Shown here piece after piece: positions 1,837 through 48,434 of a stretch of 64,000 nucleotides of DNA. The DNA is taken from assembly GCA_011772645.1 (NCBI GenBank), contig WVZE01000001.1:17888-81887 (forward strand). Direction: 5' to 3'. Position numbers and translations under genes: made by a program. The notes under the pieces are model-generated. The model did not search any database, was not told the DNA's origin, and saw only the letters and a list, made by a program, of their open reading frames with translations. Position 1 is the stretch's first letter. Every line of letters begins with the position of its first letter. Source of the stretch: Candidatus Aenigmatarchaeota archaeon (lineage in GTDB: Archaea; Aenigmatarchaeota; Aenigmatarchaeia; QMZP01; QMZT01).

Positions 1837-3030
1837 TCACACAAATATCTTTACGACATCGAACTGTTTTAACTCACCCGGGTTTTCAAGGATCTCCGAG
1901 ATTGATGGTTTCGTCCTTCTCTTGTCACCTGAGACGAGCTCGTTTATGTACAAACCCGATTCGGTTCGAACTTCGAATTCGTAAATTTTTGTATTTATCT
2001 TTTTCCATTTAATACTTTTAACCTTTTTGTGCCTGAGTTTGTCTGGTTTGCTTTTCAAAAGCCTTCTCGGGGTTTTCTGTTTCACAACCCCCACTATTTT
2101 TCCAACCCTTTGGATATCCCTGACCGGGTTTTCGAAATTAACTCTTAACCTGTAGACCTTCTCGACCTTTTTCCTCTTTATTTCAACAATTTCCTTTCTC
2201 GAGGAGTATCTCAAATTCCTGACCTTTACCATCTTTCCCCTGTTTATCTCCCTTTCGATAATTTTCAGATTTATCCTCCTTTTAAGGGGCTGGTTGATTT
2301 CAAGAACGAAGGGCCTCCACGCCAGACATTTAGCCTGCCTGTCCTCCCTCCCGCATGCATGCATTGTGTGGGAGGAGGCTCTCGTGGTTTTCATTAAAGG
2401 TTTTGCTATGATGTCCTCAACGGTTTCATGTCCTTTCATCTTGGTCTGCGGAATGCCCCTCACAAGTTTTCTGTATTCTCCGTAAACGTATACCGGGTTG
2501 ATCAGGGTCTCTATTTGTTTGTTTTGCAGGTCAAGCAAAACTATAATCTCCGGTCTGTTCTCATCAGGGATCTTGCCTGTTTTTTTCTCTACCAGCTTTC
2601 CCAGTTCCCTGTTCAGTTCTGATTTTATGGGTTCGCAGTAAGCGATTCCTGATTTCTCCCAGAGGGATTCCTCTGCCATCGCGAGGGCATCATTCATTTT
2701 CACGCCAACCATGAAACTCTTGGAATCCATTTTTTTCAGTATCTTTGCCGCCTGGTCTGCGAATTTCGGAAGCTCCTCGAAGAGATTCTTACAGACCACG
2801 CAAATTCCGGGCTTCCTTGTTTTCATCTTCCTCCTGAACGTGAAACCGTGGAAATTTGAGGTATCCAGTTTGAAGGGTTTCGCCTCGTACTCCATCGCCA
2901 GTAACCTCCTCACGATCTCCCCCCTCTGATCGTTCGAGTAACCGCTAAGTAATTTTGCGAACTGCCTTCCGAGACAGTGATCGCAAACGAAACCTAAATT
3001 CATAATCTTTATTGCATTTTCCTTAATCAC
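1837..3030 (-). CDS. pus10: tRNA pseudouridine(54/55) synthase Pus10
   Basis: 397 aa. It has the N-terminal zinc motif 'CDHCLGRQF...CVVCKN' followed by a THUMP-like and catalytic domain. It shows archaeal Pus10 synteny with L21e. Confidence 0.8.
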   Translation of the reverse strand: MIKENAIKIMNLGFVCDHCLGRQFAKLLSGYSNDQRGEIVRRLLAMEYEAKPFKLDTSNFHGFTFRRKMKTRKPGICVVCKNLFEELPKFADQAAKILKKMDSKSFMVGVKMNDALAMAEESLWEKSGIAYCEPIKSELNRELGKLVEKKTGKIPDENRPEIIVLLDLQNKQIETLINPVYVYGEYRKLVRGIPQTKMKGHETVEDIIAKPLMKTTRASSHTMHACGREDRQAKCLAWRPFVLEINQPLKRRINLKIIEREINRGKMVKVRNLRYSSRKEIVEIKRKKVEKVYRLRVNFENPVRDIQRVGKIVGVVKQKTPRRLLKSKPDKLRHKKVKSIKWKKINTKIYEFEVRTESGLYINELVSGDKRRTKPSISEILENPGELKQFDVVKIFV

Positions 3031-5109: not shown

Positions 5110-5392
5110 TAGTGGTAGGAACACGCCATCAGTGGATGCTGATCAACCAGAAGGTTTATCCACAATCCCTCCTCCACTCCGCTACCCTTCAAGCGTTGTT
5201 AATATAACTTAGGGCTGCCACCTTCCGGTTCTGACCCGGTTCATCACATTAAAAACCCTGAAGGACAGAGCTTCTCAGTTGGGAATATGGGCCTTTTGGT
5301 TTCTCAGTATCGCCTTTAGGCTTCGACTCCGTCATGAAGGCGGTTTACGGTTACAGGAGACGCCTGACCTCCCAGTCTAGTCCCTACCATCT
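5110..5392 (-). ncRNA. Signal recognition particle RNA (archaeal 7S/SRP RNA)
   Basis: The minus strand reads 'GGGAGGTCAGGCGTCTCCTGTAACCGTAAACCGCC' (5'/Alu-like domain). It also reads 'GGGTCAGAACCGGAAGGTGGCAGCCCTAAG', the helix-8 region with a GGAA tetraloop (compare 4.5S 'GGTCAGGTCCGGAAGGAAGCAGCC'). The 5' 'GGTAGGGAC' can pair with the 3' 'GTTCCTACC'. A TATA-like 'TTTTAAA' lies about 25 nt upstream (5412..5418) and an oligo-T follows the 3' end. There is no credible ORF in this 360-bp gap. The ends are approximate (+/-10 nt). Confidence 0.85.
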
Positions 5393-15583: not shown

Positions 15584-16345
15584 TTATCTCACCAGCCAGC
15601 CGAATAAACGTAAGCTCATGGGTTTTCTGGGTGCGTATTCCTCTCCGATAAGTGTGGCTGCCACCGATCTCATGTGCTGCGCGGCGAAGGATTTCGGGTT
15701 GTGGTAAACAACTGGCTCTTTCAGGGCGATTGACTTACGGACTTCCCTGTCCTCCGGGATTCTTCCGATGACGGGAACGCCCAGCATCTCCTCTATGTGT
15801 TCTATCGGAACTTCGTGCGACTCCTTCTTTATTCGGTTGACCACCACGCCCAAGTTGTGGGTTTCGAACTTCTCAGCGAGCAGGCCCAGTTTCATCGCGT
15901 CCGTTACGGCCGGGAGTTCTGGGTTGGTTATGGTTATCATTTCATCCGCAGCCTCTATAGAAGCCCTCGCTTCTCTCCCCAGACCCGCGGCCGAATCTAT
16001 CAGGAGAAAATCCGTTCCTTCCATAAGTTTGTAAAAAACATCAACAAAATCATTGGATTTGACATTCCTTATCTTTCTCAGAGATATGTCAGCGGGTATT
16101 ACCCTGAATCCGGTCTTGTGCTGGTAGGTTGCTTCGCGGATCGCTGCCCTTCCCTCCAGAACATCATGCAAGGTTTTCGGATACAGGTGAATTCCTAAAT
16201 GCAGGCCCAGGTTGGAAGTTGTCAGATTTGCGTCAAGAGCGACAACCGATTTCCCGTAAAGGGCGAGCGCTGCCGCAAGGTTCGCGACAAGCGTTGTTTT
16301 TCCAACGCCTCCCTTTCCAGAAGCCACTGTTATTACACGGGTCAT
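15584..16345 (-). CDS. minD: MinD/ParA-family P-loop ATPase (archaeal MinD-like)
   Basis: It carries the deviant Walker A 'SGKGGVGKTT', together with 'DANLTTSNL' and 'LIDSAAG'. Confidence 0.85.
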   Translation of the reverse strand: MTRVITVASGKGGVGKTTLVANLAAALALYGKSVVALDANLTTSNLGLHLGIHLYPKTLHDVLEGRAAIREATYQHKTGFRVIPADISLRKIRNVKSNDFVDVFYKLMEGTDFLLIDSAAGLGREARASIEAADEMITITNPELPAVTDAMKLGLLAEKFETHNLGVVVNRIKKESHEVPIEHIEEMLGVPVIGRIPEDREVRKSIALKEPVVYHNPKSFAAQHMRSVAATLIGEEYAPRKPMSLRLFGWLVR

Positions 16346-16433
16346 GTTTATAATTTATTTTTGAAAAGTTATAAATATATGCTGTTTCGGGAGATGACCT
16401 GGTTTATAAGGCCAAGTCATCTTTTGCCGGGTA

Positions 16434-16605
16434 CGGACCTGGTGGGAATTTCGAAGCCAGCGGTTGCTGGATGGCTGGAAACCAAACTTAGGTGGACGGC
16501 TTAATTCGATATGATCAAGCCGTCATGTGCTCTTTGGTTTCCAGTTTCGAACCCACGACCCCTCGCTTAGGAGGCGAGTGCTCTATCCAACTGAGCTACA
16601 GGTCC
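16434..16605 (-). tRNA. tRNA-Arg (anticodon CCU) interrupted by a 98-nt intron in the T-loop (near position 59/60)
   Basis: Exon 1 (16605..16546) reads GGACCTG TA GCTC AGTTGGATA GAGC A CTCGC CTCCTAA GCGAG GGGTC GTGGG TTCGAA. The intron spans 16545..16448. Exon 2 (16447..16434) reads T CCCAC CAGGTCC G. All four stems are Watson-Crick after intron removal. No CCA is encoded. Confidence 0.85.
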
Positions 16606-16642
16606 ATAGTGAGGTGTGCATCAATTTATCGCTGATTTATAA

Positions 16643-18112
16643 TTATAAATTGAAGAGGTTTTTAAAGAAATTCATCACGTTTTCTATAAATGCAGAAAAC
16701 CAGTTCTCATCTCTCTTTGAGATTATCCTGCCTGTCGTTACCATCCCCGCTGTTTCGTTCTCTGGTTCAGAAACATCAGAGGTTTCGTTCTCCATTGTTT
16801 GATTTTCCGGTTCCAAAGATTCCTTGATGAATATTTCCCTTGTTATATCATGTTTTTTGTTTTCGCACCATATCCTAACCCTCAGCTTGTATTCACCTGG
16901 CTCCGTGTCTTCCGCAATTCTGTTGCTGAGGGTCACGAGGGCGGAGGAATTCCCTGGTATGCTCGCATTTCGCCTGTTTGCATCCCATGTGTTTAACCAC
17001 TCGCTGCCGTCAAATCCGAGGGAGAGTGGTTTTTTCCCTTCGTATATGTAAGAGTAGAGAGTGTAATCTCTCTGGTAATCAAGGATGTTACTCATCCTGA
17101 CGTATATTTCAATTTCCTCGTCCTTGCTGATTTCGTAGGGGAAATAAATTATTTCAAACTCCTCCTCTTCATCTTCAGAGGTGCATTTGGGGCAGGGAGC
17201 GCAGGAACAGGTTGTTTCCCCATTTTCACAGGGAGGGCATTGCTCCGGGTCAGTTTCTCCACCCTTTACAACGATCAGTTTCTCGGCGAGGTCATTCGAA
17301 TGGTCAGAATCGTTGCATGGGAATTCCCTTATCTCAGCCACTATGTAATACGCCTCGGACCCTCCGATTTCTTTGGGCGTCCACTGTCTTGATATGTTTT
17401 TGTTGCAGGTCATGTTCTGGGTTGTGGTGTAGTTTGATCTCACCATTCTTCCGAATAGGTCCTCTATCCAGTATTCTATGCTCACTTCCTTTACTTCCTG
17501 ATCACATTCTCTGTCTTCAACACTTAGATGATAGTTTTGTCTCTCGCCTGAATTGAAAATCAGATCGGACGCTATGGAAAGCGAGAGATCGCAGGTCCCG
17601 TTGGTGACGTTGGTCTGGTTTGTTTCGTTGGTTTCATTCGTGTCTTTCGGGAGACATGTGTTTGGTAGACCTGGAGTTGAAATGTTCTGAAGAATAAAAG
17701 TCGAATTGCATAGTCCGTATGATCTATTAGTTTCAGAAGAGTTGTATACTATTTTTTGTAGGAGCGATGAACCGTTGTAGAGCGAGATGTTATCCCCGCT
17801 GTTTCTGAGGCTCATTCTGTTGTTTTCGAAAACCCTAACTTCTGAATCCCATATCTCTGCAAAAGCACTCGAGTTCTTCGTGATTATAATGAATTCATCC
17901 TTCCCGATAGAACCGTTCAGGGTTATTGGATTTTCACCAGTATCCACCGTTATGTTCTCTAAGGATAAATTAACATAGCTTGTGATCTCGATCCATTCGG
18001 AACAATCCCTGCAATTGTCATCAGGATCAGGCATGAACTCGTTTATCGTGATTGCCTGGACACTGTAAGCCGTCAAGAACAGCGAGATTACGAATACCAA
18101 ATAAACCCTCAT
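16643..18112 (-). CDS. Secreted lamin-tail-domain (LTD) protein, rich in Cys and N-glycosylation sequons
   Basis: It has a signal peptide ('MRVYLVFVISLFLTAYSVQA'). The LTD-like segment is 'ITINEFMPDPD...EWIEI...LRNSGDNISLYN'. It contains many NxS/T sequons ('NETNETNQTNVTNGT'), a Cys cluster 'CPPCENGETTCSCAPCPKC' and an acidic run. Confidence 0.6.
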   Translation of the reverse strand: MRVYLVFVISLFLTAYSVQAITINEFMPDPDDNCRDCSEWIEITSYVNLSLENITVDTGENPITLNGSIGKDEFIIITKNSSAFAEIWDSEVRVFENNRMSLRNSGDNISLYNGSSLLQKIVYNSSETNRSYGLCNSTFILQNISTPGLPNTCLPKDTNETNETNQTNVTNGTCDLSLSIASDLIFNSGERQNYHLSVEDRECDQEVKEVSIEYWIEDLFGRMVRSNYTTTQNMTCNKNISRQWTPKEIGGSEAYYIVAEIREFPCNDSDHSNDLAEKLIVVKGGETDPEQCPPCENGETTCSCAPCPKCTSEDEEEEFEIIYFPYEISKDEEIEIYVRMSNILDYQRDYTLYSYIYEGKKPLSLGFDGSEWLNTWDANRRNASIPGNSSALVTLSNRIAEDTEPGEYKLRVRIWCENKKHDITREIFIKESLEPENQTMENETSDVSEPENETAGMVTTGRIISKRDENWFSAFIENVMNFFKNLFNL

Positions 18113-18816: not shown

Positions 18817-21429
18817 TTACCCGTTCTTTATCTTGGCCTGCGCTGCAGCGAGTCTAGCAATCGGGACCCTGAAAGGCGAGCAGGAAACGTAATCAATTCC
18901 CAACTTATGGCAGAACTCGACAGAACTCGGTTCTCCGCCATGTTCACCGCAAATCCCTATTTCTATCTTGGGGTTTGTTTTTTTTCCAAGTTTCACGCAT
19001 GTCTCCATGAGCGATCCCACTCCCTCCCTGTCCAGAACTTGAAACGGGTCTTTCTTCAAAACACCCTTCTCTATGTATTTTGGTATGAATTTGCCGGAAT
19101 CATCCCTTGAAAATCCATAAGTGGTCTGGGTCAGGTCGTTCGTTCCGAACGAGAAGAAATCCAGGACCTTCGCCAGCTCATCCGCCACAACACACGCCCT
19201 CGGGAGTTCAATCATGGTTCCTATCTTGTATTTTACGTTAACCCTTGATTTTCTGATCAGGTCCTTCGCTATCCTTTCTATGACCTCCCTCATGAACTTT
19301 GCTTCTTCAAGACTCCCCAGAACAGGGATCTCTATTTCAGGGAAGGCCCTGCCTCCTGACCTGTTGATCTTGATTGCCGCCTTTATTATTGCCTCAACCT
19401 GCATTTCAGAGATCTCAGGATATACCACCCCCAGCCTGCAGCCTCTGAAACCCAGCATGGGGTTAAACTCGCTCAAGAAGTTTATTTTCTTTTTGAGTTT
19501 TTGATAGCTTACCTTCATCTTCCTTGCAAGTTTTCTTATCTCCTTATCTTCCTTTGGAAGGAATTCGTGAAGCGGCGGGTCAAGCAGACGTATGGTAACG
19601 GGTAAACCGTTCATTTCTTTGAATATCCCCAGGAAATCATTCATCTGCATGGGAAGGAGTTTCTTAAGCGCATTCCTTCTTCCCTTTTCGTCTTCGGCAA
19701 GTATCATCTCCCTGACGGAATCTATACGGCCTCCCTCAAAAAACATGTGCTCCGTTCTCGCCAAGCCGATTCCTTCAGCCCCAAAGTCTTTCGCCCTTTT
19801 CGAATCCTCAGGCGTGTCGGCATTGGTCCTTACTCCCAGTCTTCTGAATTCATCGACCCATTTCATTAACGTTCTGAACTCACCTTTCATTTCAGGATCC
19901 ACAACAGCGATTTTACCCTCAATCACCTCTCCCGTGCCCCCGTCCAGCGTGATCCATTCTCCTTCCCTAATTTTAATTTCCCCTGCCGTCAATGTCTTCT
20001 TCTTCTCATCAATAATGATGTCTTCACAGCCTGCCACACAGCAGATCCCCATTCCACGCGCAACCACAGCGGCGTGTGACGTCATTCCTCCTCTCGCTGT
20101 AAGTATTCCCTTCGAGACGGACATGCCCCCGATGTCTTCAGGGGAAGTCTCTTCCCTTACGAGCACGACATCCTTCCCTTTGGACGCAAGCTCTTCTGCC
20201 CTGTCTGCTGTGAAACACACTATTCCCACCGAGGCCCCAGGCGATGCCGGGAGTCCTTTTGCTATTGCCCTTGCTTTCTCCTTTTCCTTTGGGTCAAGCT
20301 GTTTATGAAGCAAGTGGTCAAGCTGAGCGGGATCTATCCTCATTATAGCCTCTCTTTTGCTTATCATCCTCTCTTTCACAAGATCTACCGCAATTTTCAC
20401 CGCGGCCTGCGCTGTTCTCTTTCCTGCTCTTGTCTGGAGGACGTACAGTTTTCCCTTCTCTATCGTGAATTCCAAATCCTGCATGTCTCTGTAGTGTTTA
20501 TCAAGCAGCTTGTAAACCTTCATTAGCTTCCTGTAAGCTTTCGGAAGGTCTTTTTTTAGGTTAAATATGGGTTTCGGTGTTCTTATTCCCGCAACGACGT
20601 CTTCACCCTGGGCATTAATGAGGTATTCGCCGTAGGGCGTGTTCTCGCCGGTGGAAGGATCTCTTGTGAACCCCACTCCGGTTGCAGAGTCTTTCCCCAG
20701 GTTTCCGAAAACCATTGCCTGAATGTTGACCGCTGTTCCCAGATCTTCTGGTATGTTGTTGAGTTTCCGATAGGTTCTCGCGCGTTTGTTGTCCCAGGAA
20801 CTGAAAACAGCATCTATTGACATCTTCAGTTGTTTCTTGGGGTCTGAAGGAAATTCCTTGCCTGTCTCTCTCCTGACGAGATTTTTGTATTCACTAACGA
20901 TAATTTTAAGTTCCTCGACTTTAAGGTCGGTGTCTTTTCTGCCCCTCTTGCGTTTGTTAAGGATTTTCTCGAACTTTGCATGATCCACCTCAAGAACCAC
21001 GTCACCAAACATCTGTATGAACCTTCTGTAGGAATCCCATGCAAACCTGGGATCTCCGCTTTCCTTTTCTATCCCCTTCACCGTCTTATCGTTTAGGCCG
21101 AGGTTAAGGACGGTGTCCATCATGCCCGGCATGGAGACGGGAGCACCGGATCTCACAGAAATTAACAGCGGTCTTTTTTCGTCCCCAAATTTCCTTTTCA
21201 TTTTTCTTTCCAATTTCTTTAGGTTTGATTCAACCTGTTTCTCAAGATATCTGGGGTATCTTTTGGTTTTTATGAAATCCATGCACACGCGGGTTGATAT
21301 CGTAAAACCGGGAGGTACTGGCAAACCTATCCTGGTCATTTCTCCCAGGTTCGCTCCCTTTCCTCCGAGCAGTTTTCTGCTTTCCTTCCCCCTTTCCCCG
21401 AAGAAGTAAACCATCTTCATGACATTCAC
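18817..21429 (-). CDS. ppdK: Pyruvate, phosphate dikinase
   Basis: 870 aa. 'LLGGKGANLGEM', the phospho-His region 'GGMTSHAAVVARG' and the PEP-utilising C-terminus 'GIGLARTEHMF...FFSFGTNDLTQ' identify it. Confidence 0.95.
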   Translation of the reverse strand: MNVMKMVYFFGERGKESRKLLGGKGANLGEMTRIGLPVPPGFTISTRVCMDFIKTKRYPRYLEKQVESNLKKLERKMKRKFGDEKRPLLISVRSGAPVSMPGMMDTVLNLGLNDKTVKGIEKESGDPRFAWDSYRRFIQMFGDVVLEVDHAKFEKILNKRKRGRKDTDLKVEELKIIVSEYKNLVRRETGKEFPSDPKKQLKMSIDAVFSSWDNKRARTYRKLNNIPEDLGTAVNIQAMVFGNLGKDSATGVGFTRDPSTGENTPYGEYLINAQGEDVVAGIRTPKPIFNLKKDLPKAYRKLMKVYKLLDKHYRDMQDLEFTIEKGKLYVLQTRAGKRTAQAAVKIAVDLVKERMISKREAIMRIDPAQLDHLLHKQLDPKEKEKARAIAKGLPASPGASVGIVCFTADRAEELASKGKDVVLVREETSPEDIGGMSVSKGILTARGGMTSHAAVVARGMGICCVAGCEDIIIDEKKKTLTAGEIKIREGEWITLDGGTGEVIEGKIAVVDPEMKGEFRTLMKWVDEFRRLGVRTNADTPEDSKRAKDFGAEGIGLARTEHMFFEGGRIDSVREMILAEDEKGRRNALKKLLPMQMNDFLGIFKEMNGLPVTIRLLDPPLHEFLPKEDKEIRKLARKMKVSYQKLKKKINFLSEFNPMLGFRGCRLGVVYPEISEMQVEAIIKAAIKINRSGGRAFPEIEIPVLGSLEEAKFMREVIERIAKDLIRKSRVNVKYKIGTMIELPRACVVADELAKVLDFFSFGTNDLTQTTYGFSRDDSGKFIPKYIEKGVLKKDPFQVLDREGVGSLMETCVKLGKKTNPKIEIGICGEHGGEPSSVEFCHKLGIDYVSCSPFRVPIARLAAAQAKIKNG

Positions 21430-22536: not shown

Positions 22537-22947
22537 ATGAAATATAAATTCATAGACGATCTGACATCGGACGTTCTTTTTGAAGCCTACGGGAAGGATC
22601 TGAAAGATCTGTTTACAAATGCTGCTCTCGCCCTCTTCAGCGTGATATGCCAGATAGGAAAGGTAAAGCCAAGAATTAAGAAGGAGGTTGAGGTTGGAGG
22701 GGAGGACACTAAAGATCTTATGTTTAACTGGCTTCAGGAACTCATAGTTCTTGTTGACACAGAGGAGATGTTCTTTTCAAAATTCGAAGTGAGAGAAATC
22801 GATGAGAGACATCTGAAGGCCAAATGTTATGGCGAAGGGATAACAAAGGGAAAGAGTGGGACTTTGGTGAAGGGCGTGACCTACCATAAGTTCGGGGTAG
22901 AAAAAACGGACAAAGGCTATAAGGTAACGGTCAGTCTGGATATATAG
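22537..22947 (+). CDS. Archease (RtcB activator)
   Basis: 136 aa. 'KFIDDLTSDVLFEAYGKDLKDLFTNAALAL' and the C-terminal 'VKGVTYHKF' are archease-like. It is convergent with rtcB. Confidence 0.8.
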   Translation: MKYKFIDDLTSDVLFEAYGKDLKDLFTNAALALFSVICQIGKVKPRIKKEVEVGGEDTKDLMFNWLQELIVLVDTEEMFFSKFEVREIDERHLKAKCYGEGITKGKSGTLVKGVTYHKFGVEKTDKGYKVTVSLDI

Positions 22948-22954
22948 CCGGAAT

Positions 22955-24388
22955 CTATCCCTTCAGAACTCCTACCGGAACCGTTCGTGCAACCTTCAAA
23001 GAGATTCCCATGCCGTGAACACTCTCTATCACGTCATCCACGTTCTTGTAAGCCCCCGGGGCTTCCTCTGCCAAAACCTTTGGGTGGGTTGACTGTGTGA
23101 CAATTCCTTTATTCGCAAGTTCTTCCTTGACCTTTCCACCCCAAAACTTACGAATGGCAGCGTGTCTCGACATAGCGCGCCCCGCTCCGTGAACCGTTGA
23201 CCCAAACGTTTTCTCCATTGATTTGTCTGTTCCCCTGAGAATATAAGAAGAGGTTCCCATAGTTCCCGCAATAAGGACCGGGTCGTCTGGGAAGGAACGT
23301 GTCGAACCCTTCCTGTGAACGAAAAGCTTTCTCTTTTCCCCTTCCACAACATGATTCTCGAGCTTAACCACGTTGTGGCATAACCCGTATATCGTGTTTA
23401 AATCCATCGATTCCCAGTCCTTTCCGAATATCTTTTTAAAGGTTTCGCGTATCCAGTGTGTCATCACGATTCGGTTTGTGAAGGAATAGTTCACAGCGCA
23501 CACCATTGCTGAAAAATAATCCTTCCCTTCCTGTGATTTCGAAGGGGCGCACGCAAGCTGACGGTCAGGCAGCCAAATGTTGTATTTTTTTACCGCTTGT
23601 TCCTGAATCTTCAGGTAATCGCTCGCTACCTGATGTCCAAGCCCGCGGGAGCCGCAGTGAAGCATGATCAAGATCTGATCGGGATTTTGAATTCCCCATT
23701 TGTTAGCGAATTCCTGGTCATAGATATCGGAAACCCTCTGTATCTCGAGGAAATGGTTTCCTGCTCCAAGGGTTCCCAGCTGTTGCAGACCGCGTTTCTT
23801 GGCGAGATCGGAAACTTTCGAGGAATCCCCTCCTTCCATATGTCCTCTCTCTTCCATGTTTTCCCTGTCCTTCGAAACCCCGTATCCGTTCTCTATGGCC
23901 CAGTCTATTCCTTTTTCGAGGACCTGATCTAACTGATCATTCGTTAGCTTCAATCTCCCTTTCGCTCCCACCCCGCAGGGTATGTTCTTGAACAATGTTG
24001 AAACCAACTCGTTCAATTTCGGTTTAATCTGGTCGTAAGTGAGGTTCGTTCTTATGGAATTCACCCCGCAGTTTATATCGAAACCGCAGAGTCCCGAGGA
24101 TATTATTCCATCTTGGGAATCGAACGCGCTCACAGCCCCCATCGGAAGACCGTATCCCCAGTGCATGTCCGGAAGCCCTATAACCGGCCGGATCACTCCG
24201 GGGAGGCAAGCGACGTTCGTCAGCTGCTGGATAGCGGCATCTTCTATAGCATCGACTACCCTTTTGTTTCCTATGACCTTCGCGTCCACATTCATTCGTT
24301 CCCTAGATCCCTTGGGAAGAAGCCATTCGTATTCGCCCAACTTTTTCAATTTCTCCTTCATCTCAAACCTCCATTTGACCCGCGACAT
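22955..24388 (-). CDS. rtcB: RNA-splicing ligase RtcB
   Basis: 477 aa. 'PDMHWGYGLPMG', 'DINCGV', 'GAGNHFLE', 'HCGSRGLGH' and 'HGAGR' are canonical RtcB motifs. Confidence 0.95.
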   Translation of the reverse strand: MSRVKWRFEMKEKLKKLGEYEWLLPKGSRERMNVDAKVIGNKRVVDAIEDAAIQQLTNVACLPGVIRPVIGLPDMHWGYGLPMGAVSAFDSQDGIISSGLCGFDINCGVNSIRTNLTYDQIKPKLNELVSTLFKNIPCGVGAKGRLKLTNDQLDQVLEKGIDWAIENGYGVSKDRENMEERGHMEGGDSSKVSDLAKKRGLQQLGTLGAGNHFLEIQRVSDIYDQEFANKWGIQNPDQILIMLHCGSRGLGHQVASDYLKIQEQAVKKYNIWLPDRQLACAPSKSQEGKDYFSAMVCAVNYSFTNRIVMTHWIRETFKKIFGKDWESMDLNTIYGLCHNVVKLENHVVEGEKRKLFVHRKGSTRSFPDDPVLIAGTMGTSSYILRGTDKSMEKTFGSTVHGAGRAMSRHAAIRKFWGGKVKEELANKGIVTQSTHPKVLAEEAPGAYKNVDDVIESVHGMGISLKVARTVPVGVLKG

Positions 24389-30321: not shown

Positions 30322-30867
30322 ATGCGATGTTTTGTTGCTGTTGACCTTGAAAAGGATCTCGTGAAACATATAAAAGAACTCCAGAACGAAATAAGAAATC
30401 TGAACGTAGACGTGAAGTTTGTAGAAACAGAAAATCTTCACTTCACGCTGAAGTTTCTCGGTGAACTTAACGAAAATGAAATTGATGTGATCAAAACTTC
30501 TATCGGGAATGGTTTGAAAGGGGTTGGTGTCTTCAAAATAAGAATGCGGGGTATAGGATATTTTGGAGGTCCAAACCATATAAGAACCTTGTGGGTGGAT
30601 GTGAATGAAGGTAAGGACAAGTTCACGGAACTGGTTAAAAACGTGAATGAATGTTTAAGAATTGGTGAAAAAAACAAAACAGTTCATCTAACAATAGGTA
30701 GGATTAAATCCGGAAAGAACAGGGAATTGCTCTTGAACTTCATGGACAAATCCAAAGACATTAAGATAGGTGAGATGGATGTGAAACACGTGAAGTTAAA
30801 GAGCAGCGTTTTAACCAGGGATGGGCCCGTATATTCTGATTTGGCTATATTCGAATTAAAGGGGTAG
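30322..30867 (+). CDS. thpR: RNA 2',3'-cyclic phosphodiesterase (2H phosphoesterase, ThpR/LigT family)
   Basis: It has two HxT/S motifs, 'LHFTLKFLGE' and 'VHLTIGRIK', in a ~180-aa protein. Confidence 0.8.
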   Translation: MRCFVAVDLEKDLVKHIKELQNEIRNLNVDVKFVETENLHFTLKFLGELNENEIDVIKTSIGNGLKGVGVFKIRMRGIGYFGGPNHIRTLWVDVNEGKDKFTELVKNVNECLRIGEKNKTVHLTIGRIKSGKNRELLLNFMDKSKDIKIGEMDVKHVKLKSSVLTRDGPVYSDLAIFELKG

Positions 30868-33949: not shown

Positions 33950-35314
33950 ATGGATAACGTTCTTAACAAGGTTTTGAAAAAAATAACACCCAGCAACAGG
34001 GAGAGGGAGGAGCTTTCGGGGGTTCTGAAGAGGTTGGTAGATGCAGCCGAAAGTGTGATAAAACCCATGGGTTTACAAAAAACCATCGCAGGTTCGTTCA
34101 TCCGCGACACCTGGTTAACAGACAAGAAGGAGATAGATCTCTTCATAATGTTCCCTGTTTCTTACCCGAGAGGGGATCTCGAGAAGCTCGGTCTAGAAAC
34201 AGGGAAAAGGATCGTGAAAAAACTTAAGGGTGAATACGAGATAGCATACGCAGAACATCCTTACGTTAGGGGCAAAGTGAGCGGTTTTTCAGTAGACATC
34301 GTCCCCTGTTACAAGGTTAAATCTGCTTCTAAAATAATCTCCGCGGTAGATCGCACGCCGTTTCATAACAGGTATATAGCCGAACATCTGAAGCCTGAAA
34401 TGGCGAAGGAAGTGAGACTCATCAAGCAGTTCTGCAAAGCAATCGATGTCTACGGTTCGGATATACGTACGCTTGGTTTTTCCGGCTACCTATGCGAACT
34501 TCTGATAATAAAACACAGGACCTTCAAAAAACTTGTTCTCTCTGCCAGAAACTGGAAATTCGGGAAATTCATGGATCTGGAAGGTCATTGTTACATAAGA
34601 AAACCAAAGTCCTTTTTCAGAAATCATCCCCTTATTGTTATAGACCCCACGGACCCGAAAAGAAACGTGGCCGCCGCACTCTCGGATGAGAATTTCGTCA
34701 AATTTGTGAAGTCGTGTGAAAATTTCGTGAAAAAACCAAGCGAAAGGTTCTTCAGAAGGGATATGAGAACGATAAAGATCCATGAACTCAGAAGACGCCT
34801 GAAAGCGAGAGGGACGAGGATGTTCGCCATACGTTTCGGGAGACCGAAAGTGGTTGATGATATCCTATGGTCGCAGATGAGAAAAACTTCCTCCAGGCTT
34901 GTTAACCTCCTAAAGGATAACGATTTCGAGATTTTTGATACCTCTGTGTGGAGTGACGAGAAGGATTCGTATCTGCTCTTGGAAATGAAGAGCTGGTTTC
35001 TTCCAAAAATAAGGAGGCTGAGAGGCCCTCCCGTACATTCGAAGAAGCATTCGAAACAGTTCATAGATAAGTATGGGGGGAAGGCTAAGGTTGAAGGCAA
35101 GAACTGGGTGGCCGAAATCGAAAGAAAGTACAGGAAGGTGGAAATCCTTCTGGAAGATTTTCTGAAAAGGAGTGATAAGCTCCTTCGAATGGATGGCGTA
35201 AGATCGCACATAGCAAAGAGTATTGGGAAGGATTTCGAAATTCTGAGTGGAAGGGGTTTCGAGAGGACAATAAAAAACAGGGATCTTGCAATTTTCCTTA
35301 GGAAGTATTTCTAA
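33950..35314 (+). CDS. cca: CCA-adding enzyme (archaeal class I tRNA nucleotidyltransferase)
   Basis: 454 aa. 'GSFIRDTWLTDKKEIDLFIMF', 'HPYV' and 'VDIVPC...DRTPFH' identify it. Confidence 0.9.
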   Translation: MDNVLNKVLKKITPSNREREELSGVLKRLVDAAESVIKPMGLQKTIAGSFIRDTWLTDKKEIDLFIMFPVSYPRGDLEKLGLETGKRIVKKLKGEYEIAYAEHPYVRGKVSGFSVDIVPCYKVKSASKIISAVDRTPFHNRYIAEHLKPEMAKEVRLIKQFCKAIDVYGSDIRTLGFSGYLCELLIIKHRTFKKLVLSARNWKFGKFMDLEGHCYIRKPKSFFRNHPLIVIDPTDPKRNVAAALSDENFVKFVKSCENFVKKPSERFFRRDMRTIKIHELRRRLKARGTRMFAIRFGRPKVVDDILWSQMRKTSSRLVNLLKDNDFEIFDTSVWSDEKDSYLLLEMKSWFLPKIRRLRGPPVHSKKHSKQFIDKYGGKAKVEGKNWVAEIERKYRKVEILLEDFLKRSDKLLRMDGVRSHIAKSIGKDFEILSGRGFERTIKNRDLAIFLRKYF

Positions 35315-43206: not shown

Positions 43207-44457
43207 ATGAAGATATTCTCTGACCTTCACATCCACTCAAGGTTCTCCAGAGCGACCAGTAAGGAACTGAACATAGAAAATCTCGTGAAATACGCAAAAA
43301 TGAAAGGTTTGAATCTTCTTGGTACGGGAGATTTCACGCATTCTCTCTGGCTGAAAGAGTTAAAGGAGGATCTCAGGGAAGACGGTTCCGGGATTCTTAA
43401 AAGCAAGGGGGGTTTTAGCTTCCTGCTCTCGGCAGAGGTTTCAAACATCTATACCCAGGACAACAGGCAAAGGAGAATCCACAACGTAATTCTCGCCAAG
43501 GATTTCGAAACGGTTGAGCAGATAAATGATTGGTTATCCAAGAAGGGGAGGCTTGATTACGACGGCAGGCCTATATTCGGTTTCACATGCACAGAACTCG
43601 TAGAGAACATCGTGGGTATATCAAAGGATTGTATGATAATACCAGCCCATATCTGGACACCCTGGTTTTCGCTGTTCGGTTCGAAATCCGGATTTGATCG
43701 CATTGAGGAGTGTTTTCAGGATCAAACCAAAAACATATTCGCCCTGGAAACCGGGCTGTCCTCTGACCCTGAGATGAACTGGAGGCTGTCCTCCCTGGAC
43801 AGGTATGCTCTGGTTTCATTTTCCGATCTTCATTCGTTCTGGCCATGGAGAATCGGAAGGGAAGCCACGGTTTTTGAGATGAAGGAACTGACATATGATA
43901 ATTTGGTAAAAAGCATAAGGACGAAAGAGGGTTTGGTGGAGACAATCGAAGTCGATCCTTCCTACGGTAAATATCATCACGACGGACACAGAGGTTGTGG
44001 GGTTTCGCTGAGTCCTGAAGAGGCAAGGAATTCGAATAACCTCTGCCCGGTTTGTAAACGCCCGCTGACGATCGGGGTTTTACACAGGGTTGAGGAACTC
44101 GCCGACAGGGATAAAGGATTCGTTCCGAAGGATTCAAAACCCTTCCGTTCGCTGATCCCGCTGTCCGAGATCATATCGATCGTCCTTGGCTCACCGGTAA
44201 ATTCGCGGAGGGTGTGGGAGGAATACAACAAGCTTGTAAACGCCTTTGGATCCGAGTTCAACGTCCTGATGGAGGCGGGCAGAGAGCAGTTGATTAACAT
44301 CTCGAATGAAAGAATGGTTGATCTGATCTTGAATGCAAGATCCAGGAACATAAGAATAAATGCGGGTTACGATGGGGTTTACGGAGAACTCGTCATGAAG
44401 GAAGACGAAACCGAGGGGTTGGAAAAACCCCAGAAAACCCTGAAAGACTTCAGTTAG
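43207..44457 (+). CDS. endoQ: Endonuclease Q (PHP-like N-terminal domain plus zinc finger; cleaves 5' of deaminated bases)
   Basis: 'DLHIHSRFSRATSK...GLNLLGTGDFTH', 'IPAHIWTPW', 'GLSSDPEM', 'SFSDLHS', 'GKYHHDGHRGC' and 'CPVCKRPLTIGVLHRVEELAD' are collinear with Pyrococcus EndoQ, as I recall that sequence. Confidence 0.75.
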   Translation: MKIFSDLHIHSRFSRATSKELNIENLVKYAKMKGLNLLGTGDFTHSLWLKELKEDLREDGSGILKSKGGFSFLLSAEVSNIYTQDNRQRRIHNVILAKDFETVEQINDWLSKKGRLDYDGRPIFGFTCTELVENIVGISKDCMIIPAHIWTPWFSLFGSKSGFDRIEECFQDQTKNIFALETGLSSDPEMNWRLSSLDRYALVSFSDLHSFWPWRIGREATVFEMKELTYDNLVKSIRTKEGLVETIEVDPSYGKYHHDGHRGCGVSLSPEEARNSNNLCPVCKRPLTIGVLHRVEELADRDKGFVPKDSKPFRSLIPLSEIISIVLGSPVNSRRVWEEYNKLVNAFGSEFNVLMEAGREQLINISNERMVDLILNARSRNIRINAGYDGVYGELVMKEDETEGLEKPQKTLKDFS

Positions 44458-45392
44458 AACCCTGTCACCGTCAGGGAGGTCGCCGCATCTGTAAAGTATT
44501 CGTATGTCGCCCTTATCTTTAAGGTTTTTTTCAGTATGTTGATTCCTGTCCATTTATCGCCTTCGGAAAACAGTGAAATCTCCCCGTCGCAAACCACAGT
44601 TCTCGACCGGCCTTCCCATAAATCAACTTCGTCGTACATCCCCACTTCGCAGTCCTTCAGGTTCATTCCGGATTCTGGGTCTGTCTCCAGAAAGACCTTG
44701 TTCCAGTTTACCGAATCATCACAGGTTGGATAGCAGGCAACTCCTCCCCCGGCGTTTTCGATGGATATGGATATCGGAAACTCTACTTTGTTTGTGTCTT
44801 CGATGTATCTGACAGGGCTCCTCATCTGTATGCTGAGTTTGACCGGCCCTGCCGTGAGGCTGGTGGTTTCACTCGGAAGCGATCTCCCCTGCGCCTGTAT
44901 CGATCTCAATTCGCTCTCTGATATTATCGTAACGGATTTTACTATGTTGCTCTCGTAATCATAATACACCCTCAGGCTGGGGTTGAACGTTATTTTCGAG
45001 TTTCTCGGTATATCCTCGGGTGCGGAACATTTCCATATGCAGGTCTTTGATTCCCCTGTTGTTCCCGCCCGGGGGTCAGGAGCGAGAAACCTTTCTATCA
45101 CTTCCGAGCATTCTGTTTTGCAGGAGATTTCAAGTCCTCTGTTTTCATAGGTGGCTCCTATGTTGGAAAGCTCGAACCTAACATTCCCTGCATCAACAGA
45201 GCCGGTGTTTCTTATCATCAGCTGAAGGTTAAAGGGCTCCCCGGAATACATTTCAGAGGGATTCGATACAAAGCTCTCTATAACTATCCCGTTTCCGGAA
45301 GTTGTTTGCTGTCCCACACAGCCTGATAACAAAACTAAACAAAAAACGAGCAAAGTTAACTGGGCCGGTTTCGTCATAATTTTATATTGCAT
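44454..45392 (-). CDS. Secreted lipobox-type surface protein, paralogue 1 of 4 (two beta-sandwich-like halves)
   Basis: The signal and lipobox are 'LLVFCLVLLSGC'. It shares family motifs with the next three genes: 'GIVIESF', 'IRNTGSVDA', 'LAPDP', 'RVYYDYES', 'ENAGGG' and the C-terminal 'ATYEYFTDAATSLTV'. Confidence 0.6.
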   Translation of the reverse strand: MQYKIMTKPAQLTLLVFCLVLLSGCVGQQTTSGNGIVIESFVSNPSEMYSGEPFNLQLMIRNTGSVDAGNVRFELSNIGATYENRGLEISCKTECSEVIERFLAPDPRAGTTGESKTCIWKCSAPEDIPRNSKITFNPSLRVYYDYESNIVKSVTIISESELRSIQAQGRSLPSETTSLTAGPVKLSIQMRSPVRYIEDTNKVEFPISISIENAGGGVACYPTCDDSVNWNKVFLETDPESGMNLKDCEVGMYDEVDLWEGRSRTVVCDGEISLFSEGDKWTGINILKKTLKIRATYEYFTDAATSLTVTGF

Positions 45393-45407
45393 ACGAGGCT
45401 TTTATCC

Positions 45408-46385
45408 TTATCCGCTCGGCAGAACCCTTATCTGAATGGTTTTATCTATGAAGTAACCATATTCCGCTGTCAGCCTTATGTTCTTCTGGGTCAGCCTTTC
45501 AGGAATCTCGTGGACCTGAATCTTGCAGGAGATAGTCTGGGACTTGCCCATTATCAGCAAGATCTCTTCCGTTTCTTCGCAGCTGCCCTCCTCGAAGTTC
45601 ATTCCTTCGGGCAACTCTATGTATAATCTGAACTGGTTCCACATGGATCCACCTTCTGTGTATTTCCTGCAGCTGTCACTGTTCTCGCAGACCGTTCCCC
45701 CTCCGATGTTATCTATCTTTATGACCATCGGGAACGTCAGGGTTTGTCCGTAGGTTCTTATCGGACTCCTGGTCTCTATGTCCAAGGATACGGGAGAGTC
45801 TGATTCGCTCGTTGTTTCCACGGGCAGGCTTTTGCCCTGGTTCTGGATCACCCTCAGCTCGTCCTTGGGAACGATCGTGACCGTTTTTATGAGGAATGAT
45901 TTGTAATCATAGAAAACGCGAGCCCGCGGTCTGTAATCGGCGTAAAGGCCGGGCGGAACATCGGGGGCGACATACCCCCACGTACATATTTTATCGCTGC
46001 CCTCTATTCCTGCGGACGGGTCCGGAGGCAGCAACACGATACCTCTCTGATCGTATTGGCATTCCCTTTCGTAGGGGAAAACCTCCTGGTTTCTGGGGTT
46101 CTTCCTTGCATCGTCCCTTCCTTTCCACAGCTGATCAAGGCCAAGGAGCTCTGCATAACCGTTCTCCGCTTTCACGCTACCCGTGTTTCTGAATTTAAGA
46201 ACGAAGGTTACCTCCTCATTCGAATACACCTCGCTTAATTCGGGGTCTGTCCTGAAGCTCTCTATAACTATTCCCGATCCGACCGGCGTCTGAGAATCGA
46301 ACGGCACGCCAGGCATCACGCACCCCGAAGCTAGGATTAAAGAAAAGACCATAAAGCCCGAGCAGATAATTTTTTGGCTACTCAT
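45408..46385 (-). CDS. Secreted lipobox-type surface protein, paralogue 2 of 4
   Basis: The signal and lipobox are 'FSLILASGCVMPG'. Family motifs are 'GIVIESF', 'FRNTGSVKA', 'LPPDP', 'RVFYDYKS', 'DNIGGG' and 'AEYGYFIDKTIQIRV'. Confidence 0.6.
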   Translation of the reverse strand: MSSQKIICSGFMVFSLILASGCVMPGVPFDSQTPVGSGIVIESFRTDPELSEVYSNEEVTFVLKFRNTGSVKAENGYAELLGLDQLWKGRDDARKNPRNQEVFPYERECQYDQRGIVLLPPDPSAGIEGSDKICTWGYVAPDVPPGLYADYRPRARVFYDYKSFLIKTVTIVPKDELRVIQNQGKSLPVETTSESDSPVSLDIETRSPIRTYGQTLTFPMVIKIDNIGGGTVCENSDSCRKYTEGGSMWNQFRLYIELPEGMNFEEGSCEETEEILLIMGKSQTISCKIQVHEIPERLTQKNIRLTAEYGYFIDKTIQIRVLPSG

Positions 46386-46419
46386 AATTATATAATTGTC
46401 GAAAAATAAATAAAAAGAG

Positions 46420-46427
46420 GTTTAAAC
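46420..46427. promoter_or_regulatory. GTTTAAAC TATA/BRE-like element upstream of paralogue 2
   Basis: It lies 35-42 nt upstream of the start at 46385 and overlaps the stop codon of paralogue 3. Confidence 0.3.
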
Positions 46428-47402
46428 GAACTCCTCGAATCCTTTGACTGTTATCTGAGTTGCTGCATCCACGTAGTATATGTAACCCAGCTTTATCTCG
46501 AAGTTTTTCTTGACCTTGTTCGTGGGTGGCTGCGTCACTTGGAATTCGCATGTTACGTCCGTGTACTTTCCGTTCCAAACCCTAACGTATCTTCCGAATG
46601 CCGGAGTTGACAGGAATGGCGGCAGGTTTTCATAGATGCCTGTCCCGAATTGGATCTGTCTTGGACAGTCACCGACCGGTATAACACCATCAGGCCATAC
46701 AACCTCGATAGCGACCGGGTAATCCCTTCCGAATATCTGTCCTCCTCCCGTGTTGTCTATCCTTATCTGGAGCTGGAATTTGGATTCCCTCCATTCCCTT
46801 GCCTTCACGAACTGTCCTGTATCAACCGTAACACTCAGCGGGCCGGATGTTAGTACGGTGGCTTCTGTGTCCAGGGTTCCTCCTCCCTGTACCACTCTTC
46901 TGAGTTCCTCGGCCGTCACAAACCACACTGGTTTGGTCGCTCGCGTCTCATAGTAATAGTAAATCCTTGCAATTGGTTCGTATGTCATTCTCTGGTTTCT
47001 GGAAAGTGTTGGTGTTATCACGTCCCAGTCTGCCCTTCCCCTTCCGCCTTCTGTCTGCATTTCCGGATCAGGAGCAAGCAGCAAACCAAGGTCCCTGTAA
47101 ACATCTCCGTACAAATTCCATTCGGTCGTGTCTATTCCTGTAAGCTCCGCGACTGTCGGAGCGTTGTTGTAGTCTCCCCTGTTGACAACTTCCAGATGGA
47201 GACTTACTGGTTCGTCCGATTCGATGGGCGTTGTCTGGCCTAATGTTGGTTGGAAGATTTCAACAAAAATTCCTTGTCCTCCTCCTGTTGCTGGTCCAAC
47301 ACCAGGCATGGTACAACCAGAGGTTACGGTAACTGCAGCAATGAATAACAGCAAAAAGAACTTCACGTTCCTTCCGAATGCTGTTCCCATCATCTTTATC
47401 AT
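46422..47402 (-). CDS. Secreted lipobox-type surface protein, paralogue 3 of 4
   Basis: The signal and lipobox are 'IAAVTVTSGCTMPG'. Family motifs are 'GIFVEIF', 'VVNRGD', 'LAPDP', 'RIYYYYET', 'DNTGGG' and 'LGYIYYVDAATQITV'. Confidence 0.6.
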   Translation of the reverse strand: MIKMMGTAFGRNVKFFLLLFIAAVTVTSGCTMPGVGPATGGGQGIFVEIFQPTLGQTTPIESDEPVSLHLEVVNRGDYNNAPTVAELTGIDTTEWNLYGDVYRDLGLLLAPDPEMQTEGGRGRADWDVITPTLSRNQRMTYEPIARIYYYYETRATKPVWFVTAEELRRVVQGGGTLDTEATVLTSGPLSVTVDTGQFVKAREWRESKFQLQIRIDNTGGGQIFGRDYPVAIEVVWPDGVIPVGDCPRQIQFGTGIYENLPPFLSTPAFGRYVRVWNGKYTDVTCEFQVTQPPTNKVKKNFEIKLGYIYYVDAATQITVKGFEEFV

Positions 47403-47450
47403 TTTAATATTTAACCTGTTACGCTTATAAATTTAATTTGTGTTCAGAAA

Positions 47451-48434
47451 TCAATCCAGCTCGATCTCCGGCTCTATCGTTAATCTGATCTTCTTGGTGA
47501 ATTTGTAGGAATACTTGATTTTCGAGGTGAGCTGGTAGGTTTTCTCCTGGGTTATCCACCCAGGATTTCTTGGTTCTATTTCGCACGAGAATTTCGGCGA
47601 GGTTTTTCCGATAAGTTTCAGTCCTTCTTCATCTATTTTTTCCTTGCATTTTTCACATCCTGTTACCTCCTCTTCGCCTGTTGCCTCACTTTTGGCACAA
47701 CCTATTTCTATATCGTCCTTCACTATCGTATTTCCTTCAAGTTCTCCTCTTCCCCTGTTCTCGACCCAGAAGGTCATCATGCCCTTCCCAGTTGATTTTA
47801 CATCCGCATCCGGTCTTATGTCCACCATTATCGGCTGGTCAGGAGCCTCTATGTACGATTTTACAGGACCTTCGCCCACGACTATGGTTCCCTTCTCGCT
47901 GAACGTCTTGCCCTGGGAAATCAGGTTCTCGAGCTCCTGCTGGTTCACGAAACTCACGGAAGATGTGGTGTGTGTTGTGTATGTATAACTAACAAGAACC
48001 CCGACATCGCAGGGTGTTTTTATCCTCATTGAGTTCGCCTTCATCTTCCAGTCGACTATAGCGGTCGATTGCGGATACATCTTATCGATCGTGCATTTTT
48101 TGTCCTGGAAGCTCCCCCCGGTGCATATGCTTCCCGTTGTTTCGAATATCCCGCAGTCGTCATACAGCTCTATCTCCACGGTTTCCTGTGGGTCGCTCTC
48201 GGGCTTCTGGAGGTTCTGGACGTACGCGCGAAGCGTTAGGGTCTGCCCGGACCTTATCGTGTGGGACGGGATGGCCTGCAGACTCTGTATGAAAACAACG
48301 TCGTGTCTGAACTCCTCCACGTTTGGTCCGAAGAGGTCGGAAATTATTGGTATCCTGAAATCCGTTCCGGGTATTACGCATCCAGAAATCATCAGCAGTG
48401 GTACCAGGAGGGTTATCAGCAAAGGTTTCCTCAT
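47451..48434 (-). CDS. Secreted lipobox-type surface protein, paralogue 4 of 4 (most divergent)
   Basis: The signal and lipobox are 'LVPLLMISGCVIPG'. It has the same length and two-half layout, with 'VSYTYTT', 'QQELENLISQGKTF' and 'VENRGRG'. It is Cys-rich. Confidence 0.55.
   Translation of the reverse strand: MRKPLLITLLVPLLMISGCVIPGTDFRIPIISDLFGPNVEEFRHDVVFIQSLQAIPSHTIRSGQTLTLRAYVQNLQKPESDPQETVEIELYDDCGIFETTGSICTGGSFQDKKCTIDKMYPQSTAIVDWKMKANSMRIKTPCDVGVLVSYTYTTHTTSSVSFVNQQELENLISQGKTFSEKGTIVVGEGPVKSYIEAPDQPIMVDIRPDADVKSTGKGMMTFWVENRGRGELEGNTIVKDDIEIGCAKSEATGEEEVTGCEKCKEKIDEEGLKLIGKTSPKFSCEIEPRNPGWITQEKTYQLTSKIKYSYKFTKKIRLTIEPEIELD

Follow-up and report, generated by a model that had tools for sequence, protein, structure and literature searches.

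The question raised by this locus is whether a tRNA-Arg(CCU) gene that is split within its T-loop by 98 nucleotides (nt) of additional sequence still gives rise to a working tRNA, and if so, by what route the additional sequence is removed. The gene is located on the minus strand, at 16434..16605, of a 64,000-nt stretch of contig WVZE01000001.1 (assembly GCA_011772645.1, positions 17,888 to 81,887 of the forward strand) from a Candidatus Aenigmatarchaeota archaeon; that whole stretch is referred to here as the window. The analysis indicates that the locus is very probably a functional tRNA-Arg(CCU) gene interrupted by a single intron of the archaeal protein-spliced type, located at position 59/60, which is non-canonical. 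That conclusion was reached because the spliced product is a perfect tRNA-Arg(cct), because homologous introns that display compensatory changes are present in related lineages, because the window encodes RtcB, archease and a CCA-adding enzyme, and because the AGG codon is in heavy demand.

The gene spans 172 nt including the intron, and does not encode a CCA terminus. Read along the minus strand from 16605 to 16434, it consists of GGACCTGTAGCTCAGTTGGATAGAGCACTCGCCTCCTAAGCGAGGGGTCGTGGGTTCGAA, the 98 intervening nucleotides and TCCCACCAGGTCCG. Exon 1 (16546..16605, corresponding to tRNA positions 1-59) begins with GGACCTG, ends with GTGGGTTCGAA, and contributes the 5' strand of the acceptor stem, the D arm, the anticodon arm (with the anticodon CCT at 16571-16569), the variable loop, the 5' strand of the T stem and T-loop residues U54 through A59; exon 2 (16434..16447) contributes U60, the 3' strand of the T stem (CCCAC, at 16446-16442), the 3' strand of the acceptor stem (CAGGTCC) and the discriminator G. 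When the intron (16448..16545) was removed in silico, ARAGORN reported a 74-nt tRNA-Arg(cct) in which all four arms are fully paired and the T-loop is the 7-nt sequence TTCGAAT, the expected junction joining ...GGGUUCGAA to UCCCAC...; neither exon contains any defect. Both the identity of the tRNA and the intron boundaries that had been assigned in the original prediction were therefore recovered.

The same sequence is present, without change, in two assemblies (GCA_012975005.1, on contig JABAOC010004231.1, and GCA_012974965.1), and public gene calls leave the interval 16434..16605 intergenic. The open reading frames (ORFs) that cover the gene on the plus strand (16199-16504 and 16527-16802) exist only in a mechanical sense and appear to be spurious, as had been suspected. 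A putative archaeal TATA box (TTATAAAT, 16635..16642, minus strand), read from the sequence as an inference only, precedes the 5' end of the tRNA by approximately 33 nt, and a CTATAAATA motif occupies the equivalent place, following the stop codon of the upstream gene, in orthologous loci. Beyond the 3' end, the predicted 10-base-pair (bp) trailer hairpin (16393..16421, minus strand) does fold, at -13.0 kcal/mol, and alignment of the trailers indicated that its position is conserved at orthologous loci.

Folding of the precursor provided a structural explanation for the position of the intron. The minimum free energy (MFE) of the precursor is -76.6 kcal/mol (z = -7.2, with none of 200 shuffled sequences equally stable), and that of the intron alone is -41.6 kcal/mol (z = -7.5). 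The MFE structure retains the T stem (GUGGG/CCCAC) and the three other arms of the mature tRNA (acceptor, D and anticodon), a 3-nt bulge (A-U-U60) adjoins the T stem on its 3' strand, and beyond that bulge the palindromic T-loop sequence UUCGAA (U54-A59, 16551-16546) pairs with a second UUCGAA, carried at the intron's 3' end (16455-16450). That the 3'-terminal copy forms the splicing helix had been suggested previously, and the pairing was recovered both in the MFE fold and in a consensus drawn from three lineages (described below). The central helix, H, has as its 5' strand U54 U55 C56 G57 (16548..16551), which pairs with 16453-16450 in both folds; the 5' splice site (A58 and A59 followed by the first intron base, also A, 16547-16545) follows that strand directly. 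The 3' splicing element (16447..16455) comprises UU (16455-16454), the 3' strand of H (CGAA, 16453-16450) and the bulge (16449-16447), in which the 3' splice site falls between the U at 16448 and U60 at 16447.

The intron helices that had been listed from inspection were all present in the same fold. The longest, P1, is a 12-bp helix (CTGGAAACCAAA paired with TTTGGTTTCCAG, 16544-16533 with 16486-16475, the complete arm spanning 16475..16544) that encloses an internal loop and a nested hairpin, P1a; the latter (GACGGCTT.. paired with ..AAGCCGTC, 16524-16495) contains a module of the form AUGAC...GUC. A second hairpin, P2 (CCAGC AACC GCUGG, 16457..16470), falls within a conserved AUCC(A/U)GCAACC segment.

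A bulge-helix-bulge motif had been anticipated at both junctions. This held for the 3' junction, where a proper 3-nt bulge is flanked by an exon helix h' (the T stem) and by the 4-bp central helix H, in the MFE fold as well as in the three-lineage consensus; it held only in relaxed form for the 5' junction, which is located in a three-way junction. A strict hBHBh' arrangement, in which a second 3-nt bulge would be closed by a helix h, was considered at the 5' site and rejected: the spacing is right and places the cut after A59, while UUCG + CUG(G) lacks a contiguous partner strand and no h helix is formed. The modeled motif is thus a relaxed bulge-helix-bulge of the HBh', or bulge-helix-loop (BHL), class. 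The intron could nonetheless be assigned to exactly 59/60, as originally proposed, because the 4-bp ruler measured from the 3' bulge predicts a cut that leaves a 7-nt T-loop; homologous introns in two other lineages occupy the same site.

Comparison of orthologous loci lent further support to this reading. (Loci are designated by labels, with L001 denoting the window's own contig and L018 being the same as L006.) The tRNA-Arg(CCU) gene sits, in many Aenigmarchaeota, between a gene encoding a lamin-tail-domain (LTD) protein and one encoding a MinD/ParA-like ATPase. Homologous 59/60 introns were found at two such loci, one of 91 nt in L006/L018 and one of 64 nt in L045, where the LTD proteins are 42% and 40% identical, respectively, to that of the window; each of these genes also harbors a D-loop intron. 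The RNAalifold consensus of the three T arms consists of the T stem, the 3-nt 3' bulge and helix H, and includes pair changes both in the exon (pair 50:64, U-A to A-U) and in H (pair 4, G-C to G-U). When MAFFT and RNAalifold were applied to the three introns, only that T stem-bulge-H core was recovered; P1 and P2 were misaligned as a result of length differences, and their pairs were therefore tabulated by hand. That tabulation revealed compensatory changes in P1 (pair 1, C-G to G-C; pair 3, G-C to C-G) and changes that maintain pairing in P2 (A-U to U-A, and G-C to G-U), and the segment AUCC(A/U)GCAACC is conserved across L001, L006, L018 and L045. In L045, P1 is closed by a simple 7-nt loop without a nested hairpin, and the 98-nt intron of the window looks like an L045-like 64-nt core that bears an extra hairpin in its P1 loop.

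Further copies of the intron were sought by two pattern scans. A metagenome scan with GGGTTCGAA-N68-98-TTCGAAATTCCC returned 21 matches, among which only L018 represents the same intron; the pattern was too strict, in that it missed the L045 type (UUGAAAA). The other matches were examined as possible copies and set aside, L020/L024 corresponding to a different and unusual tRNA-Ser locus and the remainder to tandem tRNAs or chance. A scan of viral contigs with the conserved intron motif returned 31 matches, none with a T-loop upstream, and all were attributed to chance. The tRNA-Ser locus, on a metagenome contig at approximately 9430-9790 of L020 (identical to L024), contains a complete tRNA-Ser(GCU); some 60 nt beyond it, the T-arm and acceptor 3' half of this tRNA are repeated, ending in CCA, and the repeat is broken at 59/60 by a 77-nt insert that has the same TTCGAA/TTCGAA helix together with two hairpins. 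Duplication of an att site, use of an alternative 3' end and a further T-loop intron are all conceivable.

Across the orthologous loci, the number and position of introns vary considerably. The gene is free of introns in L034, where the LTD protein is 68% identical to that of the window, and likewise in L003, L005, L007, L008 and L009. D-loop and anticodon-stem introns occur together in L036/L037 and L042 (LTD identities of 64% and 57%), while L038 (61%) combines an anticodon-stem intron with a 12-nt intron at 37/38. A D-loop intron alone is found in L039/L040, L043, L044 and L046 (58%, 56%, 42% and 46%, respectively), as well as in L004 and L012. Intron lengths range over 18-45 nt in the D-loop, 17-18 nt in the anticodon stem and 64-98 nt at 59/60, with the single length of 12 nt at 37/38, and up to two introns are present per gene; all ten genes that were spliced in silico were called as tRNA-Arg(cct) by ARAGORN. 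Many of the D-loop introns begin with a T-loop-like AGUUUCGAAU. A single orthologous gene may thus have no intron, or introns at any of four positions (D-loop, anticodon stem, 37/38 and 59/60), and such turnover predicts that the splicing endonuclease of this lineage has a broad substrate specificity.

The host is, to judge from two features of the window, an uncultured DPANN archaeon (Candidatus Aenigmarchaeota), because a full-length archaeal signal recognition particle RNA is encoded at 5115-5387 (minus strand, 153.8 bits) and because one identical protein and dozens of homologues are known for the 489-residue LTD protein encoded upstream of the tRNA, all of them from Candidatus Aenigmarchaeota/Aenigmatarchaeota. 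A scan of species-representative genomes in GTDB with the exons yielded ten matches, mostly from Aenigmatarchaeota or from other archaeal metagenome-assembled genomes, two of the ten being bacterial. Several of the enzymes expected to act on such a precursor are also encoded in the window. The tRNA-splicing ligase RtcB (22955..24388, minus strand; PF01139, 518 bits, E = 3e-155) and its cofactor archease (22537..22947, plus strand; PF01951, 130.9 bits) are specified by adjacent, divergent genes approximately 6 kilobases (kb) from the intron-containing tRNA, and a CCA-adding enzyme, required here since no CCA terminus is specified by the gene, is found at 33950..35314 (plus strand; PF09249, PF21133 and PF01909). 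Of the 488 arginine codons in 22 genes of the window, 243 are AGG, the commonest of them.

Several observations weigh against a functional, spliced gene, and some of these would equally be expected if the locus were a pseudogene, that is, a tRNA-Arg(CCU) gene inactivated by a hairpin-rich insert (resembling a miniature inverted-repeat transposable element, or arising by local duplication of the T-loop) that is never spliced out. At the 5' site there is no canonical 3-nt bulge, A58 and A59 being paired with two U's in the MFE fold, and an EndA of strict specificity is not expected to cut there; in favor of splicing, a penalty of only 2.3 kcal/mol is enough to unpair A58, A59 and intron base 1, and the three A's then lie in the three-way junction with P1 and P2. 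The closer relatives lack the T-loop intron and its distribution is patchy, so that it is dispensable, and the covariation argument rests on only three lineages. No EndA of the PF01974 type was found among the approximately 60 ORFs of the window with five Pfam batches and one NCBIfam batch, nor was an EndA match found there in tblastn and phmmer searches with the Methanocaldococcus jannaschii enzyme (a query identical to PDB entry 1A79); the gene is presumably located elsewhere in the genome. A second tRNA that reads AGG, such as tRNA-Arg(UCU), may also be encoded elsewhere. The insert moreover has the appearance of a mobile element, with 12-bp terminal inverted repeats (the arms of P1) and a direct repeat of TTCGAA(A) at both ends.

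Inactivation by such an insert is nevertheless very unlikely. If TTCGAA(A) were a target-site duplication, its removal would restore a 9-nt T-loop and hence no tRNA, whereas the bulge-helix-bulge ruler restores a perfect loop of 7 nt. The flawless condition of the exons is difficult to reconcile with loss of function, as is the persistence of the position and architecture of the insert, with compensatory changes, in genomes where the neighboring protein is only about 40% identical. Outside the two arms within the intron, the P1 sequence (CTGGAAACCAAA) does not recur in the 64 kb of the window, the gene occupies the syntenic position of tRNA-Arg(CCU) in all relatives, and the codon that it would read is the one that the genes of the window use most among those for arginine.

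A functional gene with a protein-spliced intron thus remains the preferred interpretation, and its maturation may be proposed to follow the route already established for archaea. Before cleavage, the T stem and the three other arms (acceptor, D and anticodon) would adopt their mature form, and the palindromic T-loop, U54-U55-C56-G57 (and potentially A58-A59), would pair with the copy of itself, UUCGAA, that the intron carries at its 3' end. This pairing would leave the 3-nt bulge (A and U of the intron followed by U60) beside the T stem, as the T-arm counterpart of the layout seen at 37/38. EndA would then cut inside that bulge, between U and U60, and again at a distance of 4 bp and 2 nt on the other strand, between A59 and the A that begins the intron, within the three-way junction formed with P1 and P2. 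Cleavage would be expected to leave 2',3'-cyclic phosphate and 5'-hydroxyl ends, upon which RtcB and archease would join the exon ends, with circularization of the intron being probable; RNase P and RNase Z would trim the termini and the CCA-adding enzyme would complete the 3' end. That an EndA of broad substrate specificity carries out the cleavage, and that splicing does take place, is what we infer.

Removal of the intron by a different route was also considered, either as a self-splicing group I or group II intron or through assembly of the tRNA from split or permuted halves. The first of these proposals has some precedent, in that bacterial tRNA genes can carry group I introns and archaea, too, possess introns of this group (PMC6125680). 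At 98 nt, the intron is far too short (at least ~200 nt being expected); no Rfam intron family was matched at E <= 10 in the region 16350-16700, where the only matches were to tRNA and three at chance level; and both halves of the tRNA are collinear and contiguous on a single strand, contrary to a split or permuted gene. The probability of either arrangement is accordingly judged to be vanishingly small. The intron was further evaluated as the host of a guide RNA. Box C/D small RNAs reside in the intron of euryarchaeal tRNA-Trp, the boxes reading RUGAUGA (C) and CUGA (D). The present intron contains no CUGA, only a C-box-like AUGACGG, and no match to an Rfam snoRNA or sRNA family, and this possibility was rejected.

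A hairpin module with the form (U)AUGAC-stem-loop-stem-GUC, often followed by NNN-CGAAA, was observed repeatedly around and inside the tRNA-Arg(CCU) gene. In the window it corresponds to the trailer hairpin (16393-16421) and to P1a (16495-16524), both on the minus strand; elsewhere it is found in the trailers of all orthologous loci, in the leaders of L038, L040, L043 and L044, and as the core of the D-loop introns of L036, L040, L043, L045 and L046. The copy in the L045 D-loop intron is identical at 21 of 22 positions to that in the L038 leader, and at 24 of 27 positions to that in the L040 leader. A scan of the 64-kb window for hairpins of the AUGAC type returned only the two at this locus, and the module matches no Rfam family.

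These repeats bear upon a further possibility, namely that the intron is spliced and in addition does something more: the excised and probably circular RNA might have a function of its own, or the module nested in P1 might act as an element, mobile or involved in processing, by which introns and flanks at this locus are seeded and enlarged. Several observations favor this possibility: the module recurs within introns of both the D-loop and the T-loop as well as in leaders and trailers, copies from an intron and a leader at different loci are nearly identical, the window's intron equals an L045-like core with the module placed in its P1 loop, and the architecture and an 11-nt single-stranded motif are conserved across three deep lineages. 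Set against this are the small number of intron copies found (three), the lack of any Rfam family match or of C/D boxes, the absence from the window of any module copy beyond the two described, the fact that many relatives do well without the intron, and the consideration that its conservation could reflect constraints imposed by splicing together with slow divergence. A role of either kind is on balance quite improbable. The joint proposal, that the intron is an ancient and structurally conserved Aenigmarchaeota RNA with a role once it has been released (a stable circle being one possible form) that also carries a mobile or processing module, is likewise considered unlikely; if true, the mobile module would offer a tangible way to study how tRNA genes of archaea acquire their introns.

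Whatever the fate of the excised RNA, a spliced tRNA-Arg(CCU) with an intron at 59/60 has its main practical importance in annotation, and does not alter what is known of how such introns work. The expectation that standard tRNA finders would miss the gene was borne out for two programs. ARAGORN found no tRNA in the unspliced 64-kb window, with or without its anticodon-loop intron option, nor did it find one with that option in the precursor alone. The Rfam tRNA model gave only a partial match to exon 1 (16548-16605, 33.4 bits), skipping the T arm, as compared to 71.5 bits for the intron-less orthologue in L034, and did not detect the genes of L006 and L045, in which D-loop and T-loop introns are combined. 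The expectation has a limit in tRNAscan-SE 2.0, whose archaeal mode includes a default search for non-canonical introns, using models trained on Crenarchaeota/Euryarchaeota and on Thaumarchaeota (PMC8450103). Because an intron-bearing gene of this kind is invisible to ARAGORN and half-seen by the Rfam model, DPANN genomes of this group would be scored as lacking a tRNA for their commonest arginine codon, and claims regarding the completeness or the 'reduced' nature of DPANN genomes can be biased by such missed genes.

Additional features of the window and of its orthologous loci were recorded during the same analysis. A TTTATAACTTTTC motif, located approximately 20-25 nt upstream of the MinD/ParA-like start codon, is highly conserved at all orthologous loci (16350-16392 in the window, minus strand), and probably serves as the TATA box for a message whose leader is short or absent. 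The window also encodes a LigT-like 2',3'-phosphoesterase (30322-30867) and Pus10 (1837-3030). Pyruvate phosphate dikinase, upstream of a CBS-domain gene, is 1283 residues long in L036 and L042, and the gene call in L037 is cut to 849 residues; intein and LAGLIDADG matches are found in the enzyme from all three loci, while that of the window (18817-21429, minus strand, 870 residues) is free of inteins. Finally, four tandem ORFs of 312-327 codons without Pfam matches lie at 44454-48434 (minus strand); clear paralogy (25-36% identity) unites three of them, to which the fourth shows a weak relationship, and the N-termini of these ORFs resemble lipoprotein signals (…SGC…).

Most non-canonical archaeal tRNA introns are approximately 12-40 nt in length, and those at 59/60 were reportedly described by Marck and Grosjean in 2003 and by Sugahara et al. 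in 2008 from Crenarchaeota, and especially from Thermoproteales; the class of relaxed HBh'/bulge-helix-loop motifs is likewise said to trace to Marck and Grosjean. Position 59/60 is listed among the non-canonical intron positions of archaea (PMC4090602), the relaxed motif class is summarized in PMC4090602 and PMC5829648, and the dependence of such motifs on EndAs of broad specificity is documented (PMC5829648, PMC3239211). The feature is therefore less unusual than the original prediction implied. Within the literature that was searched, tRNA introns of Aenigmarchaeota were not the subject of any paper. Both the 59/60 position and the richness of DPANN tRNAs in introns have been described already, and what is presented here is a well-supported T-loop intron in a DPANN phylum; its length, the three-way junction at its 5' site and the turnover of introns at one orthologous locus are its notable aspects.

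The canonical intron at 37/38, with its hBHBh' motif, offers the simplest comparison. In both cases a 5-bp stem is followed by a central helix that contains the first four loop bases, the 5' site is made up of loop bases 5 and 6 together with intron base 1, the last loop base is the third base of the 3' bulge, and the same enzymes (EndA, and RtcB with archease) are expected to act. The present motif differs in that it is built upon the T arm, a multi-branch junction replaces the 5' bulge, and there is no h helix. The HBh' intron in the D-loop of Methanopyrus kandleri pre-tRNA-Glu(UUC) is similar in presenting a relaxed motif that needs an endonuclease of broadened specificity, and differs in being placed in the D-loop rather than the T-loop. 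Relaxed motifs are also shared with the disrupted tRNAs of DPANN archaea, including those of ARMAN-2 and Nanoarchaeum (PMC5829648, PMC3239211), where EndAs with an L3 loop accompany many disrupted tRNA genes; in particular, several DPANN lineages have alpha4 EndAs with such a loop, associated with increased tRNA gene disruption (Kaneta et al., PMC5829648), a pattern that, by analogy, fits this intron, Aenigmarchaeota not being specifically discussed in that work.

The closest parallel is with the 59/60 introns of Crenarchaeota. There, as here, the T stem flanks the motif, base pairing links the T-loop to the intron's 3' end, and the motif is of the relaxed HBh' type; orthologous tRNA genes in those organisms also vary in the number and position of their introns, and may carry several at once. 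The turnover at the tRNA-Arg(CCU) locus resembles that of Thermoproteales, in which multiple tRNA introns have been rapidly gained and turned over (PMC4033280), but takes place in a DPANN phylum. The host of the present intron belongs to DPANN rather than TACK, and the intron itself is, unlike its crenarchaeal counterparts, a large one of 98 nt that is organized around a three-way junction and contains a nested hairpin.

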